A program made the position numbers and the translations under genes. From positions 1 through 37,055 of the forward strand of contig JBFRWI010000001.1 in NCBI GenBank assembly GCA_051439505.1: a stretch of 37,055 bases of DNA, written 5' to 3'. The notes below the pieces were generated by a model. That model had not been told where the DNA came from and did no database searches. It saw only the letters and a program-made list of their open reading frames with translations. Below, piece after piece: positions 1,196 through 5,865 of the stretch. Origin of the DNA: Hormoscilla sp. Its GTDB lineage: Bacteria; Cyanobacteriota; Cyanobacteriia; Cyanobacteriales; Desertifilaceae. Position 1 is the stretch's first letter. Each line of letters starts with the position of its first letter.

Positions 1196-1723
1196 TTGTT
1201 AGATAAAGAAGCGATGCTTGAGTATTTGTCAACAAAATTAGACAGCTTACAATTATCACAATCGGACTCGATCTGGCTAGTATGGATTGTTGCTATTGTA
1301 TTTATAGCTGTACTGTTCTTGGTTATCTTTCTAGTGTCGGTTTTGCCAGTAATTAGAGTCTTCAGAAAAGCCAGTATCCGGGGCAAAAAGGAAATAGTTG
1401 GTCCTCCCTATATAGGAATTCAGATGATGACGCTGACGCCAGAGTGGGCAGAACGGAATAACAAAGATCCCAATGCTTTTTATCTGTTACCATCAAGTGG
1501 AGTATTGGTGACATTACTTTCCGAGGATGGACCTGCGGCAGCAGCGGGAATTCGTCGAGGCGATACCATTACACAAGTAAATAGACAAAAAATTACTACT
1601 GTCGATCAGGTGCAGAATATTGTCGCTGACAGTATCGTTGGTTCTCGGTTGCAGTTTAAGCTCAAACGGGGCGATCGCTTCCTCAAGTTAAAAGTCCGCA
1701 CGGCGTCACTACCAAGTGGTTAG
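1196..1723 (+). CDS. Membrane-anchored PDZ-domain protein (HtrA/DegP-type PDZ, no protease domain)
   Basis: One TM helix (IWLVWIVAIVFIAVLFLVIFLVSVL), then PYIGIQMMTLTPE...GPAAAAGIRRGDTITQVN. Confidence 0.75.
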   Translation: MLDKEAMLEYLSTKLDSLQLSQSDSIWLVWIVAIVFIAVLFLVIFLVSVLPVIRVFRKASIRGKKEIVGPPYIGIQMMTLTPEWAERNNKDPNAFYLLPSSGVLVTLLSEDGPAAAAGIRRGDTITQVNRQKITTVDQVQNIVADSIVGSRLQFKLKRGDRFLKLKVRTASLPSG

Positions 1724-1787
1724 CGGTTAGCGGACAACCTCCGGGGAGGCGAGACGCCCGCCCTACGCAAGAGATCGAGGTAGAAAC

Positions 1788-1860
1788 ATGACGAACACCA
1801 TTAAGAAATACTCTCTGTTTATCCTCTGTGCGGTATTATTCGGTATAGGGGCGATCGGGC
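1788..1860 (+). pseudogene. Probable 5' fragment (signal peptide) of the dienelactone hydrolase gene disrupted by IS607
   Basis: GAGG at 1777-1780 precedes ATG 1788. MTNTIKKYSLFILCAVLFGIGAIG looks like a signal peptide and runs into the IS left end. Confidence 0.5.
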
Positions 1861-1915
1861 TGAAAATTTCTATATTTTTCCGGAAATATAGTCCCGGGTG
1901 TGGTAGATATAGATA

Positions 1916-2520
1916 GTGCAAGAAAAAACTATGAGATATGTCACCCCGAGAGAAGCGTCACAAATCCTTCAGGTCTCGCAGAAAACACTCCGAAACTGGG
2001 ACAAGGACGGAAAAATACATACAGTTAGAACTCCCGCTGGTCATCGACGATACGACATCGACTCCGTCATTAGTCCAGGCGGCGACACCAGAATCAGAAT
2101 CCTCTACGCCAGAGTCAGTTCATATAAACAAAAGTCAGACCTCGAACGGCAAGCAGACTACTTGCAATCGTTGTTCACAGAGGTCAAACTTGGTCATTGC
2201 TTATCGGATCAGGTCTCAACTACAAACGAAAAGGACTTTTATCCATTTTGGGACAAGTCCTGTCAGGAGATGTCAGAGAAGTTGTGGTCTGCCACAAAGA
2301 CCGACTTGTCAGGTAAGGTCAAGACCTTATCGAATGGCTCTGTCAACAAAAAGATTGCCAACTCGTGGTTCTCAACAGAAGTGACCTATCTCCAGAACGA
2401 GAAATGGTTGAGGATATCCTTGCCATCGTCCATGTCTTCAGTTGCCGACTCTACGGACTCAGAAAGTACAAATCTACTATCAAAGAAGATTCGAGTTTAC
2501 CCGGAAACAGCACTAGCTAA
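1916..2520 (+). pseudogene. tnpA: IS607 TnpA serine recombinase, frameshifted, with internal stop
   Basis: Frame 2 reads YVTPREASQILQVSQKTLRNWD...ILYARVSSYKQKSDLERQ. It continues in frame 1 from 2203 as IGSGLNYKRKGLLSILGQVLSGDVREVVVCHKDRLVR*(TAA 2314-2316)GQDLIEWLC...EMVEDILAIVHVFSCRLYGLRKYK, ending at TAA 2518-2520. Confidence 0.88.
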
Positions 2521-3631
2521 AACTTGGTATCAATGGATATCAGCAGCCAGATGGTGCTTCAATCAGGCTATTGCCATACTCAAAAAACAGAAGATTGGCA
2601 AATATGACCTACGGAAAACGGTCATGAATATGGCTCCATCTTGGGTAACCCAAACTCCATATAACCCCCGCCAATTGGCGGTATTTCAGGCTTATGAGGC
2701 ACATAAAGCAGCAAGAAAATCAGGAGGAGATGCCAAATTTAGCTCAGTACGTACACCTGTTAAGTCTATCCGGTTTCAAAAAGATAACTGGAAGAAAGGA
2801 ACGTTTTATCCAACACAGACCAAAGGATTAATGTTCAAAGCAAGTGAGCCAATTATAGACAAAATGCATCATGAGCCTACTTTGGTATTAGATAGGGGAC
2901 GTTGGTTTATCTGTTATGCCATAGAAGCACCATTACCAGAACCATTAGACAGTTGTCTAGCCATTGCCCTTGATCCAGGCGTTAGGACATTTATAACTGG
3001 GTTTGACGGTCAAGAAATTTGGGAAGTTGGCAGGTCGGATATGGGTCGGATATATCGGTTAGCCAGTCACCTTGATAAGCTAATGTCTCGGATCGGTTTA
3101 TCTAAAGGACGACAATTCAAGCGGCTACGGTACCGTCTGCGAAAAGCGGCACAAAAGATTCGGATTAAGATTCGTAATCTTGTAGATGAACTTCACAAGA
3201 AAGCAGCAAACTATCTATGTACAAAATACAAGGTCATATTTTTGCCTACATTTGAGGTGAAAAATATGGTCAAACGAGGCAAGCGACGGTTGTCAACTAA
3301 GACAGCACGTAAAATGGTTACATGGTCGCATTATCGTTTTAAACAAACGTTGAAGCATCAAGCAGCTAAATACGGCTGTGTTGTAGTAGACGTGACAGAA
3401 GAGTACACCAGTAAAACTTGCTCAAAGTGTGGGCACATTCACCTAAAGCTGGGAGGCAACAAACAATTTGTTTGTCCCTCCTGTGGTCATACTATTGGTC
3501 GAGATATCAATGGCGCCTTCAATATTTTGTTGAAGGCTTTGAGAGATACCTCCACATCTGGCATGATCGACTCATTCCAGATTGTGCCATACTCAGAAAC
3601 TTCCGGCAATTGCCAGATTTTTCCGGGTTAA
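1916..3631 (+). CDS. tnpB: TnpB RNA-guided nuclease, pro-Fanzor/Fanzor2-like, read here as a TnpA-HTH::TnpB fusion ORF (TnpB proper may start at ATG 2270 or 2432)
   Basis: RuvC-I ALDPGVRTF (D 2972). RuvC-II FLPTFE has P at the canonical E position, with an alternative E in VTEEYTSKTC. Zn finger CSKCG/CPSCG. RuvC-III RDINGAFNI. Confidence 0.88.
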   Translation: MQEKTMRYVTPREASQILQVSQKTLRNWDKDGKIHTVRTPAGHRRYDIDSVISPGGDTRIRILYARVSSYKQKSDLERQADYLQSLFTEVKLGHCLSDQVSTTNEKDFYPFWDKSCQEMSEKLWSATKTDLSGKVKTLSNGSVNKKIANSWFSTEVTYLQNEKWLRISLPSSMSSVADSTDSESTNLLSKKIRVYPETALAKTWYQWISAARWCFNQAIAILKKQKIGKYDLRKTVMNMAPSWVTQTPYNPRQLAVFQAYEAHKAARKSGGDAKFSSVRTPVKSIRFQKDNWKKGTFYPTQTKGLMFKASEPIIDKMHHEPTLVLDRGRWFICYAIEAPLPEPLDSCLAIALDPGVRTFITGFDGQEIWEVGRSDMGRIYRLASHLDKLMSRIGLSKGRQFKRLRYRLRKAAQKIRIKIRNLVDELHKKAANYLCTKYKVIFLPTFEVKNMVKRGKRRLSTKTARKMVTWSHYRFKQTLKHQAAKYGCVVVDVTEEYTSKTCSKCGHIHLKLGGNKQFVCPSCGHTIGRDINGAFNILLKALRDTSTSGMIDSFQIVPYSETSGNCQIFPG

Positions 3632-3638
3632 ATGTATC

Positions 3639-4244
3639 TGGATGGGACTGGGAGATTTTTATCAGCAAAAAGCGGAAAAATTGGCCCAGATGGGCTATGT
3701 GGCGTTTGCTGCGGATATCTACGGTAAGGGCGTGAGACCAAAAAATAGAGAAGAGGCCAGAACTCAAGCAACTATCTATAGATCCGATCGTCAGTTGATG
3801 CGCGATCGGGCGAACGCTGGGTTAAAGCTATTGCGAGACCATCCCCTTTCCCAAAACAACCGCCTGGGGGCGATCGGCTATTGTTTCGGCGGCGGCACAG
3901 TGCTAGAATTAGCCCGTAGCGGTGCGAAAGTAGCGGGTGTAGTCAGCTTCCACGGCAATCTGGATACACCCAATCCCAGAGATGCTAATAACATTAAAGG
4001 TAAAGTCTTAGTATTGCATGGTGCCGACGATCCCTTAGTACCCAAAGAACAGGTTGCTGCCTTTACCGAAGAGATGCGCCAAGCTAATGTTGACTGGCAA
4101 ATGATATCTTACGGCGGCGCAGTCCACAGCTTTACCAATCCCAAAGCTGGCAGAGATCCCTCTCAAGGTTCAGCTTACAATCGAGATGCCGATCGGCGTT
4201 CTTGGTCGGCCATGCAGTTGTTTTTTGCTGAAATATTTGATTAG
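3639..4244 (+). pseudogene. Dienelactone hydrolase family protein, 3' part (N-terminus lost at the IS junction)
   Basis: WMGL...LAQMGYVAFAADIYG, nucleophile motif GYCFGG, LHGADDP and GGAVHSF. Homology begins abruptly at the IS right end. Confidence 0.85.
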
Positions 4245-4254
4245 CCTCAAATAA

Positions 4255-4294
4255 TTAATGGTTCGTGGCTGTTAACCCGGCCATGAACCATTAA
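4255..4294. terminator. Probable bidirectional terminator hairpin
   Basis: TTAATGGTTCGTGGC...GCCATGAACCATTAA lies between two convergent genes. Confidence 0.65.
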
Positions 4295-4319
4295 CTATTG
4301 GCATTATCTCACAGAATGG

Positions 4320-4484
4320 TTATTCTTTCCTGGCAATCACCCACACGGCGTGAATAATTCCGGGAAGATAACCGAAAAAGGTCAAGATGATATTGATCCA
4401 AAAGTCCTTGCCAAGACCAACTTGTAAGAATACTCCCAAGGGGGGCAAAAAAATCGCACACAAAATTCTAATTAAATCGCCCAT
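4320..4484 (-). CDS. YqaE/Pmp3 family small membrane proteolipid (54 aa; not in ORF track)
   Basis: Manual translation: MGDLIRILCAIFLPPLGVFLQVGLGKDFWINIILTFFGYLPGIIHAVWVIARKE*. GGAGG lies upstream. Confidence 0.92.
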   Translation of the reverse strand: MGDLIRILCAIFLPPLGVFLQVGLGKDFWINIILTFFGYLPGIIHAVWVIARKE

Positions 4485-4516
4485 TTAAGCCTCCTTCAAA
4501 ACATAAACGCTAGCTC

Positions 4517-4829: not shown

Positions 4830-5390
4830 CTAGAGTGCTTGTGCTTTAACTGACTCCACCCGATCGGGAAAGAAAGATAAGGGATGATATGCAGGAAAAG
4901 TATTGCTTTCGAGCAATAATACGGCCCAATAGTGGATTAACATCGACCAAGCACTCCAACGATCGGGATATATGAATTGTGGTTCTGTTGCTGTTAACTC
5001 TCTGGCATATACTTCCGGCGGGATAATTTGGCGTTCTTCCCAGACCTTTGCTGGCTGAAATTTGTAATCTTTTTCGATCTTGTCAATCACAATTTTTCCC
5101 ACTGACTGCCACGATCGTCCCCGGTTAAAATCAGATGACTCTACTAGATATTCTACGATAAAATCATTGAATTTTGTTCGAGTTAATCTGAGATGAACAA
5201 AAGGAATCTCCCGACCAACTCCTATGGGGGGGGGCTTTGGCAAACCCACAGGTCGAGACACAACTCTGTCTGCATATTGTTTCTCAATTTCCTTAGCGCG
5301 GGCAAGTATTTTGTTCATATCGCCATCGCATTCCGCTTCTATTTCCAGTCTGATTTTGTGAATTTCTTCTACAATTGGGTCTGACTGCAT
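4830..5390 (-). CDS. PIN-associated putative antitoxin N-terminus fused to an unknown C-terminal domain
   Basis: MQSDPIVEEIHKIRLEIEAECDGD resembles the small partner proteins found downstream of this PIN class. It starts 1 nt after the PIN gene's stop codon. Confidence 0.55.
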   Translation of the reverse strand: MQSDPIVEEIHKIRLEIEAECDGDMNKILARAKEIEKQYADRVVSRPVGLPKPPPIGVGREIPFVHLRLTRTKFNDFIVEYLVESSDFNRGRSWQSVGKIVIDKIEKDYKFQPAKVWEERQIIPPEVYARELTATEPQFIYPDRWSAWSMLIHYWAVLLLESNTFPAYHPLSFFPDRVESVKAQAL

Positions 5391-5391
5391 A

Positions 5392-5865
5392 TTAGATCTC
5401 CATGAGTGTTTCTGGCGTACATATTACTGGCGTGTGTATAGCCTCACTACCATTAATTTCTGTGATGATTCTGCGAACGCGAGCGCTAACAATGTGCTTA
5501 CAATTCCAGCTTACCAAATAGTCCATCCTGTGCCAAGCTGCTATAGCTAGGTGAAAGGCGTCTAGTTTGGCTTTATCGGGAATTTGGAGAGCAGTCAAGT
5601 ATCTATTAGCTAATTCGCTTATTTCATCATTTGATTGTAAGAACTGTAAGTTGGCAATTGCCTCAATCCGTTTTTGCGCTGCATCCCGATCCCCTTTTGA
5701 TATTTCATCAATCACAAATGGCGAGATGAAACCTTGCACTTGAGGAAGGATGTTTTCCCACCAATTAACGGTAATTTGCTGATGAGCAGCTACGATCGAG
5801 TCCCGGCTCGGTCTAGCTGTCAGGTAGCTGACGATCGCGGTTTCGATGTAAACTGTAGGTTTCAT
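5392..5865 (-). CDS. PIN-domain (VapC-like) toxin
   Basis: VYIETAIVSYL, FVIDEISKGD, DAFHLAIA, YLVSWNCKHI and PVICTPE. Confidence 0.85.
   Translation of the reverse strand: MKPTVYIETAIVSYLTARPSRDSIVAAHQQITVNWWENILPQVQGFISPFVIDEISKGDRDAAQKRIEAIANLQFLQSNDEISELANRYLTALQIPDKAKLDAFHLAIAAWHRMDYLVSWNCKHIVSARVRRIITEINGSEAIHTPVICTPETLMEI

Follow-up and report, generated by a model that had tools for sequence, protein, structure and literature searches.

A cyanobacterial pro-Fanzor element whose TnpB N-terminal domain appears overprinted on the IS607 transposase gene

The closest described relatives of the element studied here are the pro-Fanzors, which, in the main text of Yoon et al. (2023, PMC10711439), combine a DPG motif in RuvC-I, a glutamate six residues before the zinc finger and an IS607 tnpA with a cyanobacterial host, a pseudoknotted right-end RNA and a dinucleotide core. 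The closest solved structure is that of the mimivirus Fanzor2 ApmFz2 (also L79; 9B0L), whose N-terminal domain (residues 53–130) is absent from other TnpB structures and was termed unique to Fanzor2, and whose RuvC-R segment (65–91) completes the RuvC fold and touches the RNA pseudoknot through N82/S83, according to the available passages of Schargel et al. (PMC11832414). Here we analyse a stretch of 37,055 nucleotides (nt) from Hormoscilla sp. (contig JBFRWI010000001.1, positions 1–37,055; hereafter the window) that carries an IS607 element with a broken serine-recombinase gene, tnpA, followed by a TnpB of the pro-Fanzor class. Relative to the pro-Fanzors as that main text presents them, the relatives collected here also lie on phage and giant-virus contigs, and the window copy is broken in tnpA and at its left end. 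The nuclease class itself is thus already published; what is new is the dual coding of tnpA and TnpB and its implication for Fanzor2. We consider it very probable that this is an IS607 pro-Fanzor element in which the N-terminal domain of TnpB is overprinted on tnpA in the +1 frame, and that the window holds a decaying copy of it.

The TnpB frame laid over tnpA

Among the 167 loci that were examined, 81 carry an intact tnpA and TnpB on the same strand, and in every one of these TnpB lies in the +1 frame of tnpA, with an overlap of at least 347 nt that takes in more than 90% of tnpA in 61 of the 81; phage and giant-virus contigs are included (loci L116, L118, L231, L250, L269 and L277). In the sister copy L001 (contig C213, 91% identical to the window element), the TnpB frame is open across the whole of tnpA, running for 563 codons from an ATG that lies 7 nt downstream of that of tnpA, and many database homologues are called at 540–578 amino acids (aa). 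An earlier note on this DNA had seen the TnpB extension overlap tnpA out of frame, which holds for the 3′ half of tnpA; that the overlap is family-wide and selected had escaped it.

Selection on the +1 frame is apparent from its stop codons. Forty-four representatives (below 80% identity, median 45%) contain 68 stops in +1 against 228 expected from codon permutation or 508 from uniform codons, and 566 stops in +2 against 606 expected. As a control, we searched 121 genomes of the phylum for IS607 tnpAs with the family model, and 19 of them gave a match (30 loci, 27 intact). Six of the 27 are linked to the pro-Fanzor clade and have one or two stops in +1, none of them in the 3′ half; the other 21 cyanobacterial tnpAs have 13–24. 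Serine-recombinase tnpA with a closed +1 frame is widespread, including in control genomes outside cyanobacteria.

The overlapping segment contains three motifs, PFW, LW (KLW in the window, LWLP in relatives) and NSWF. In 61 overlapped representatives, residues P105, W107, L118, S145, W146 and F147 are kept at frequencies of 0.84, 0.97, 0.98, 0.93, 0.85 and 0.82, where the tnpA sequence leads one to expect 0.21–0.32 for these six +1 residues; the same columns of 18 non-overlapped tnpAs give 0–0.11, with the exception of L118, and hold stops in 28–50% of rows. The frequency of 0.93 for S145 compares with 0.48 for the corresponding Leu of tnpA, and the motifs stand in register with the most conserved strands of the serine recombinase. 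When both frames of the shared stretch are scored in 131 distinct loci, stops fall only in tnpA in 32, in both frames in one and only in +1 in none. About 30 of the roughly 34 distinct loci that lack the 5′ part of tnpA keep PFW in the TnpB frame, as judged by eye (the exceptions are L048, L071, L075 and L123), often with a new Met 4–21 codons upstream of it.

These data bear on the plainest alternative, in which TnpB is an ordinary pro-Fanzor protein of ~390 aa and the open +1 frame is an untranslated by-product of codon usage or of constraints on the DNA or RNA. It would account for the starts of 24 of the 25 named database proteins among the 120 matches listed, which lie downstream of PFW; in several single genes the 3′ half stays open under codon permutation with P of at least 0.1, and the extension is largely Ser/Thr-rich and predicted to be disordered. 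However, it sits badly with the 13–24 stops of other IS607 tnpAs from the same phylum, with conservation of +1 residues where the tnpA residue is not conserved, and with the persistence of the motifs after loss of tnpA and in Fanzor2, where they are structured. We regard it as highly improbable.

Compared with L001, the window copy has two extra bases in tnpA, and this net +2 lesion joins the TnpA start to the TnpB frame; an in-frame TAA further interrupts tnpA. With tnpA dead, a single frame of 566 codons results, whose first ~88 residues are a MerR-type helix-turn-helix and the start of the serine recombinase. The start near 2200 proposed in the earlier note is therefore wrong, and the note had overlooked the TAA in tnpA as well as the clipped left end and the R271S substitution described below. 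The lesion also diverts the frame of the ATG at +7 to a stop at 2384, and because the stretch from the lesion to PFW holds no start codon, a TnpB that bears the motifs could be made in the window only from the tnpA start.

Such a fusion raises the possibility that ribosomes translating tnpA normally pass into the TnpB frame by a programmed +1 frameshift, and that the window has hard-wired it into a selected fusion with a DNA-binding domain of its own. Both tnpA lesions are common to L170, a 98%-identical copy at another site in genome G001, so the variant has moved at least once; in the deletion derivatives L013, L032 and L053 the TnpB frame follows directly on the tnpA start or on a leader ATG; and TnpB start offsets vary among viral members. 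Yet the 5′ half of the +1 frame is free of stops in 12 of 17 cyanobacterial representatives versus 6 of 27 from viruses, and the Tyr codon from which the ATG at +7/+10 is formed is TAT in 13 of 16 cases versus 49 of 105 elsewhere (P 0.014), both of which fit a start codon of TnpB's own. L168 and L170, in which TnpB is broken, carry further frameshifts that likewise bring the two frames together, and fusions of this kind are therefore most plausibly side effects of decay where one stretch encodes two proteins. The window copy has diverged from L170 by three amino-acid changes to one silent change (small numbers), and no slippery site was seen, although no search was aimed at such sites. A programmed frameshift thus seems very unlikely, and we favour a separate TnpB start inside tnpA.

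One candidate for that start, M114 (MSEKLW), was rejected, as it is Met in only 34 of 94 rows and lies downstream of the invariant W107. In one subfamily (L046, L051, L055, L064, L070, L076 and L080) the expected tnpA start has no ATG and shows ATTG after a purine-rich stretch, which could give overlapping starts, ATT for tnpA and TTG for TnpB.

The nuclease core and the N-terminal domain of Fanzor2

The catalytic residues D348 (in D348-P349-G350), E490 and D525 are invariant in all 94 aligned homologues, so that the earlier note was right about the DPG of RuvC-I, the RDING aspartate of RuvC-III and an intact triad. It had also placed an acidic pair before the zinc finger (3398–3403), and the first member of this pair, E490, is the invariant one, E491 being kept in 51 of 94 homologues. 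The proline it saw in FLPTFE at the canonical RuvC-II position is P439 (Pro in 93 of 94), which a HMMER alignment places on the canonical RuvC-II Glu of an ISDra2-like protein, with E490 on E467 of the mimivirus Fanzor2. E490 lies six residues before the zinc finger and the canonical Glu is absent. Since E490 is invariant and the Glu of LPTFE, E442, varies (kept in 74 of 94), the latter is not the ordinary RuvC-II residue. Canonical TnpBs (ISDra2, 8H1J; ISFba1, 8IAZ) share the WED/REC/RuvC/zinc-finger core and a right-end guide RNA with the window protein, but have D-hydrophobic-G in RuvC-I and a Glu ~50 residues before the zinc finger where the window has DPG and P439, align only from window residue ~180, and belong with tnpAs whose +1 frames are closed.

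Membership in the pro-Fanzor IS607 group, which the earlier note had proposed, is borne out by several lines of evidence. The regular expression with which Yoon et al. defined pro-Fanzors matches the window protein and 105 of the 121 collected proteins. The closest solved structure is ApmFz2 (E 3e-26 with the single sequence, 6e-72 by profile search), followed by a natural TnpB at 8e-10, and the window protein falls below the cut-offs of NF038280 and NF038281 (56 of 350 and 81 of 425 bits). In a tree of 53 nuclease cores, from which ApmFz2 was left out, it lies apart from canonical TnpB in a 39-row group with DPG and the alternative Glu that contains giant-virus proteins (support 100/98), and there in a six-row, mainly cyanobacterial subgroup (100/99). 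The window tnpA, here a pseudogene, matches NF033518 with 112 bits from its 3′ part alone, which ties the nuclease to an IS607 serine recombinase. The nearest titled loci are cyanobacterial and the window, part of a cyanobacterial chromosome contig, contains a PsbQ gene; the host is not a eukaryote or eukaryotic virus, as Fanzor2 hosts are. The label 'Fanzor-ancestral' is consistent with this placement, but the tree does not settle whether the cyanobacterial group is closer to Fanzor2 than the phage-borne members are. A scan of viral contigs with the single protein returned no relatives; alignment queries did find them.

With ApmFz2 the window protein shares ~24% identity and the rearranged triad (D324/E467/D501 for D348/E490/D525) and, as far as the available passages of PMC11832414 describe the viral enzyme, an N-terminal domain with RuvC-R motifs, a pseudoknot and a short target-adjacent motif (TAM). 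ApmFz2 is described with a nuclear localization signal and a basic thumb, and its TAM, GGG, and 247-nt omegaRNA differ from the RSTG predicted and the conserved ~105-nt stretch found here. A profile of cyanobacterial proteins aligns NSWF with N82-S83-W84 of ApmFz2, and a profile of 11 viral non-overlapped proteins aligns LWLP with its ISKWIPT (E 1e-83). A template-free model built from 94 rows (mean predicted local distance difference test score, pLDDT, 80.6) superposes on 9B0L with Z 27.2 and a root-mean-square deviation of 3.8 over 407 aligned residues, starting from model residue 7 and chain residue 53, whereas the ISDra2 and ISFba1 TnpBs superpose only from residues 83–85 (Z 24.6 and 22.4); an earlier model from 23 rows had ranked ISDra2 and ApmFz2 nearly alike. 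The structured N-terminal domain with RuvC-R that characterizes Fanzor2 is accordingly present in the predicted structure.

Between overlapped and decoupled proteins we find a graded series in which PFW, LWLP and NSWF are kept and the linkers are shortened, with sister pairs of the two kinds at starred support (L145/L227 and L231/L240). The opposite direction of events, in which the overlap with tnpA was acquired by an N-terminal module that already existed as an ordinary Fanzor2/TnpB domain, or a convergent likeness to RuvC-R, is compatible with trees that leave the direction unfixed, with an ApmFz2 match made up of two short motifs and a predicted superposition, and with the mimivirus-like loci L156, L158, L164 and L275, which carry the module without the overlap. 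Against it stand the register of the motifs on the most conserved recombinase strands, the wide occurrence of tnpA with a closed +1 frame, the graded series with its starred sister pairs, and the consideration that a functional recombinase is far less likely to be written over an existing domain. We consider such an origin unlikely. As tnpA is older and its +1 frame is closed elsewhere, overprinting is the most likely origin of the domain, and because the extension aligns with the RuvC-R of Fanzor2 in sequence and in predicted structure, that domain probably arose in the same way. The trees agree loosely with overprinting and do not prove a direction.

Among viral relatives, five giant-virus elements (L156, L157, L158, L164 and L275) have tnpA on the opposite strand, with 26–42 stops regained in +1, and a nuclease that keeps LWIP/NSWF-like motifs; their tnpAs form one clade in the tnpA tree. 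The giant-virus Fanzor2 genes L240 and L247 have a long acidic insert upstream of PFW, preceded in L247 by frameshifted tnpA remnants. Cultured Vibrio phages (L308, which is Vibrio phage F100, OZ195714.1; H2–H21) carry relatives with the PFW/LWLP/NSWF extension, of which L308 has DVG, no zinc finger and an annotated start downstream of the motifs.

In the model that we favour, frame 0 of an intact tnpA would make the serine transposase, which would insert the element at a TG core within 5′-RSTG, and TnpB would be read in +1 from a start inside tnpA and upstream of PFW, in cyanobacteria usually an ATG 7–10 nt after the tnpA start. The segment over the 3′ half of tnpA would fold back on RuvC like the RuvC-R of Fanzor2 and contact the omegaRNA pseudoknot, and the right-end RNA would guide TnpB to cut the empty site, which, by analogy with other TnpBs, may favour retention of the element. 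Once overprinted on tnpA, the domain would have been kept as tnpA decayed, was deleted or switched strand in giant viruses. With both frames open at that place, a frameshift would by itself have produced the window fusion.

Several points weigh against this model. The loci were gathered with TnpB queries, which favours an intact +1 frame, and relatives are not independent. The overlapped group of 61 was defined by lack of stops, and conditioning on that lack raises the expectation to ~0.5 for W107 and ~0.33 for W146, still below the observed values; residue L118 is Leu in 0.50 of the non-overlapped rows as well. Two RNA runs contained only contigs of relatives. In the 23-row structure model pLDDT is below 50 for residues 121–177 and the extension is mostly disordered, and in the 94-row model it is ordered only in the PFW helix (pLDDT 86) and the strand after NSWF (76). 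A search for a tnpA fossil under the N-terminus of fully decoupled giant-virus proteins gave nothing convincing (best 6.8 bits). The TnpB clade is a polytomy that needs at least eight changes of overlap and does not fix the order of events, and nor does the tnpA tree, which lacks a clean root and in which the opposite-strand tnpAs fall among overlapped ones at unstarred support. ApmFz2 has no PFW motif and is not in the tree.

Ends, guide and state of the window copy

IS607 elements insert at a shared dinucleotide, without terminal inverted repeats or target duplication, and here intact copies carry a TG core at each end, which the empty site has too. The empty alleles L171 and L187 (genomes G002 and G003) read through the insertion site as one open reading frame (ORF) and place the insertion point in the dienelactone-hydrolase-family gene, between GACTG and GATGG. 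In the window, 134–143 nt of this gene (between 1859 and 3638) and ~23 nt of the left end have been deleted, the two sides of the junction overlap by two bases (GC), and the clipped left end lacks the TG core and one of two TTTCCGGAAA repeats. An assembly error was ruled out for both the frameshift and the left junction: the junction is reproduced exactly by contigs of runs X1 and X3, which come from a single study that may have used the source sample, and at 2193–2197 roughly half of the depth belongs to the sister form that is two bases shorter, in keeping with the presence of two copies. The empty allele also occurs in one contig of run X11. Both tnpA lesions (2193–2203 and 2310–2326) involve TT/AA swaps, as from template-switch micro-inversions, and the second lies in the loop of a small palindrome (GGTC-AA-GACC versus GGTC-TT-GACC in relatives).

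The right end is intact, but with tnpA frameshifted and stopped and the left end clipped the element is not an autonomous IS607: the window copy is immobile, non-autonomous and decaying. Its TnpB has been under purifying selection in comparison with six of seven near copies (pN/pS 0.09–0.19). The substitution R271S is private to it, the position being R or K in 92 of 94 homologues; the active ApmFz2 appears to have Trp there, so R271S need not be fatal. The earlier description of a compact, possibly active nuclease is doubtful for this copy, a 566-aa fusion read from the tnpA start that carries R271S in an immobilized element. The triad and the RNA pseudoknot are intact, and the nuclease may still work, with about an even chance at most.

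Further elements of the clade lie on contigs C213, C147, C174, C125, C35 and C170 of G000 (L001–L006) and fall into two families that are ~36% identical to each other. L001, L003 and L004 combine a damaged tnpA with an open TnpB frame, in L006 tnpA is intact and TnpB truncated, and L002 is a right-end remnant.

The element ends in AATGTATCTG at 3640; in all close copies conservation stops after ATCTG and the sequences diverge. Near the start of the right end, the loop GATAC (3545–3549) of a 3-pair hairpin can pair with GTATC (3634–3638). Over 38 right ends 94% of the cells of this hairpin and pseudoknot are paired, with 17 double changes, and none of 500 shuffles equals this; slid registers pair in 25–55% of cells. 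The test leans towards this structure, which was derived from the tested sequences. By its pairing, the right-end pseudoknot is intact in the window copy. RNAalifold recovered only the 3-pair hairpin from the 38 right ends, and as the middle stems cannot be aligned across subfamilies we do not claim a full omegaRNA structure. Rfam gave no matches over 1500–4500 at E up to 1, and a promoter scan, which found two sites against 3.7 expected by chance, was not used.

All 14 scored insertion flanks (five copies in G002, L001, L011, L012, L013, L030, L035, L047, L170 and the empty site; L168 was left out) read RSTG, which predicts the target motif, and the TAM is probably 5′-RSTG. Guide length was inferred from the available passages of PMC10711439 and PMC13565253. 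A second guide target flanked by the TAM was not found in the genome: judged by eye, 18 other matches (up to two mismatches over 16 nt) include one preceded by ATG and none preceded by STG. A perfect 16-nt match near 2941 of G000 contig C153 likewise lacks the predicted TAM before it. The right ends of the L046, L050–L087 and L041 subfamilies read TATCAG or TATCCG instead of TATCTG; the subfamilies therefore probably use different core dinucleotides (AG, CG, TG) and TAMs.

Feature coordinates are collected in Table 1. Elsewhere in the window, 67–1044 encodes peptidoglycan-binding domains and a glycoside hydrolase 19-like domain in an endolysin-like architecture and a chromosomal setting, and 4830–5865 (− strand) holds two adjoining ORFs without Pfam matches, one of which (5392–5865, − strand) resembles a PIN-domain toxin–antitoxin protein by its motif only.

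Table 1 Features of the element and its insertion site in the window
Feature	Position	Strand	Remarks
Dienelactone-hydrolase-family host gene, 5′ stump (signal-peptide region)	1788–1859	+	Broken by the insertion and an adjacent deletion
IS607 left end, clipped	1860–1930	+	Outer ~23 nt missing; compared with intact left ends of L001, L170 and the G002 copies
tnpA pseudogene (IS607 serine recombinase)	1931–2520	+	+2 frameshift ~2193–2203; in-frame TAA 2314–2316; natural stop 2518–2520
Displaced 5′ part of the original +1 frame	1938–2384	+	ATG 7 nt after the tnpA ATG; ends at a stop, whereas intact copies run on into TnpB (563 codons)
Single open frame, 566 aa	1931–3631	+	TnpA (1–~88) fused to the TnpB frame
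TnpB N-terminal domain, read as overprinted	2237–2520	+	+1 frame of tnpA; homologous to the Fanzor2 N-terminal domain/RuvC-R
Motifs of the N-terminal domain	PFW 2243–2251, then helix; KLW 2279–2287; NSWF 2360–2371	+	
TnpB core (WED/REC, RuvC, zinc finger)	2480–3631	+	D348 (2972), E490 (3398), D525 (3503), P439 (3245), R271S (2741)
Right end/predicted omegaRNA scaffold	3536–3640	+	Hairpin 3541–3552; element ends at the TG core, 3639–3640
Predicted guide in host flank	3641–3660	+	Target is the empty allele, there preceded by ACTG (L171, L187)
Dienelactone-hydrolase-family gene, 3′ part	3641–4244	+	Pfam DLH, E 1e-43; empty alleles

Database annotation and the origin of RuvC-R

Gene callers keep one of the two frames, and cloning a pro-Fanzor as annotated would therefore express a truncated enzyme. 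The 25 named database proteins among the 120 matches listed comprise one with both PFW and NSWF, one with NSWF only and 23 with neither, after removal by eye of two spurious pattern matches. In the Nostoc PCC 7120 plasmid copy the annotated protein begins 107 codons after the start of the match, in a frame that is open for 578 codons, and a Microcoleus phage record annotates a 562-codon TnpB and omits tnpA despite a tnpA frame of 200 codons.

We did not find +1 dual coding of tnpA and TnpB in the literature, on which subscription papers, ISfinder notes, figures and closed supplements may also bear. The words 'overlap', 'frame' and 'N-terminal' are absent from the main text of Yoon et al. (PMC10711439), which leaves the +1 overlap and the extension undescribed, and the overlap was likewise not found in the available passages of Yoon 2023, Bao and Jurka 2013, Jiang 2023, Saito 2023, Altae-Tran 2023, Xu 2024, a 2026 review, PMC12923547 and PMC9956272. 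The overlaps described in those passages are that of the omegaRNA and the short one of ordinary IS607, in which tnpB overlaps the end of tnpA (IS607a, PMC9956272); an assay of a cyanobacterial pro-Fanzor was not found in them either.

Our results suggest the birth of a functional protein domain within another gene, and they suggest that most of these enzymes are clipped in the databases. We think it likely, with less confidence than we place in the overprinting itself, that the RuvC-R of Fanzor2 was born de novo by +1 overprinting of IS607 tnpA in a common ancestor of pro-Fanzors and Fanzor2, became a requirement of RNA binding or of the rearranged active site, and later came loose from tnpA in giant viruses and eukaryotes. 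Full-length pro-Fanzors of ~470–560 aa, mostly clipped in databases, would then be untried programmable nucleases with short TAMs (RSTG here); the window copy alone is a poor candidate, and its intact relatives are better ones. If this is true, the origin of the 'unique' N-terminal domain of Fanzor2 would be explained, and the family would provide a rare and old bacterial case in which same-strand overprinting gave rise to a folded domain, and in which the structure of a descendant is already solved.

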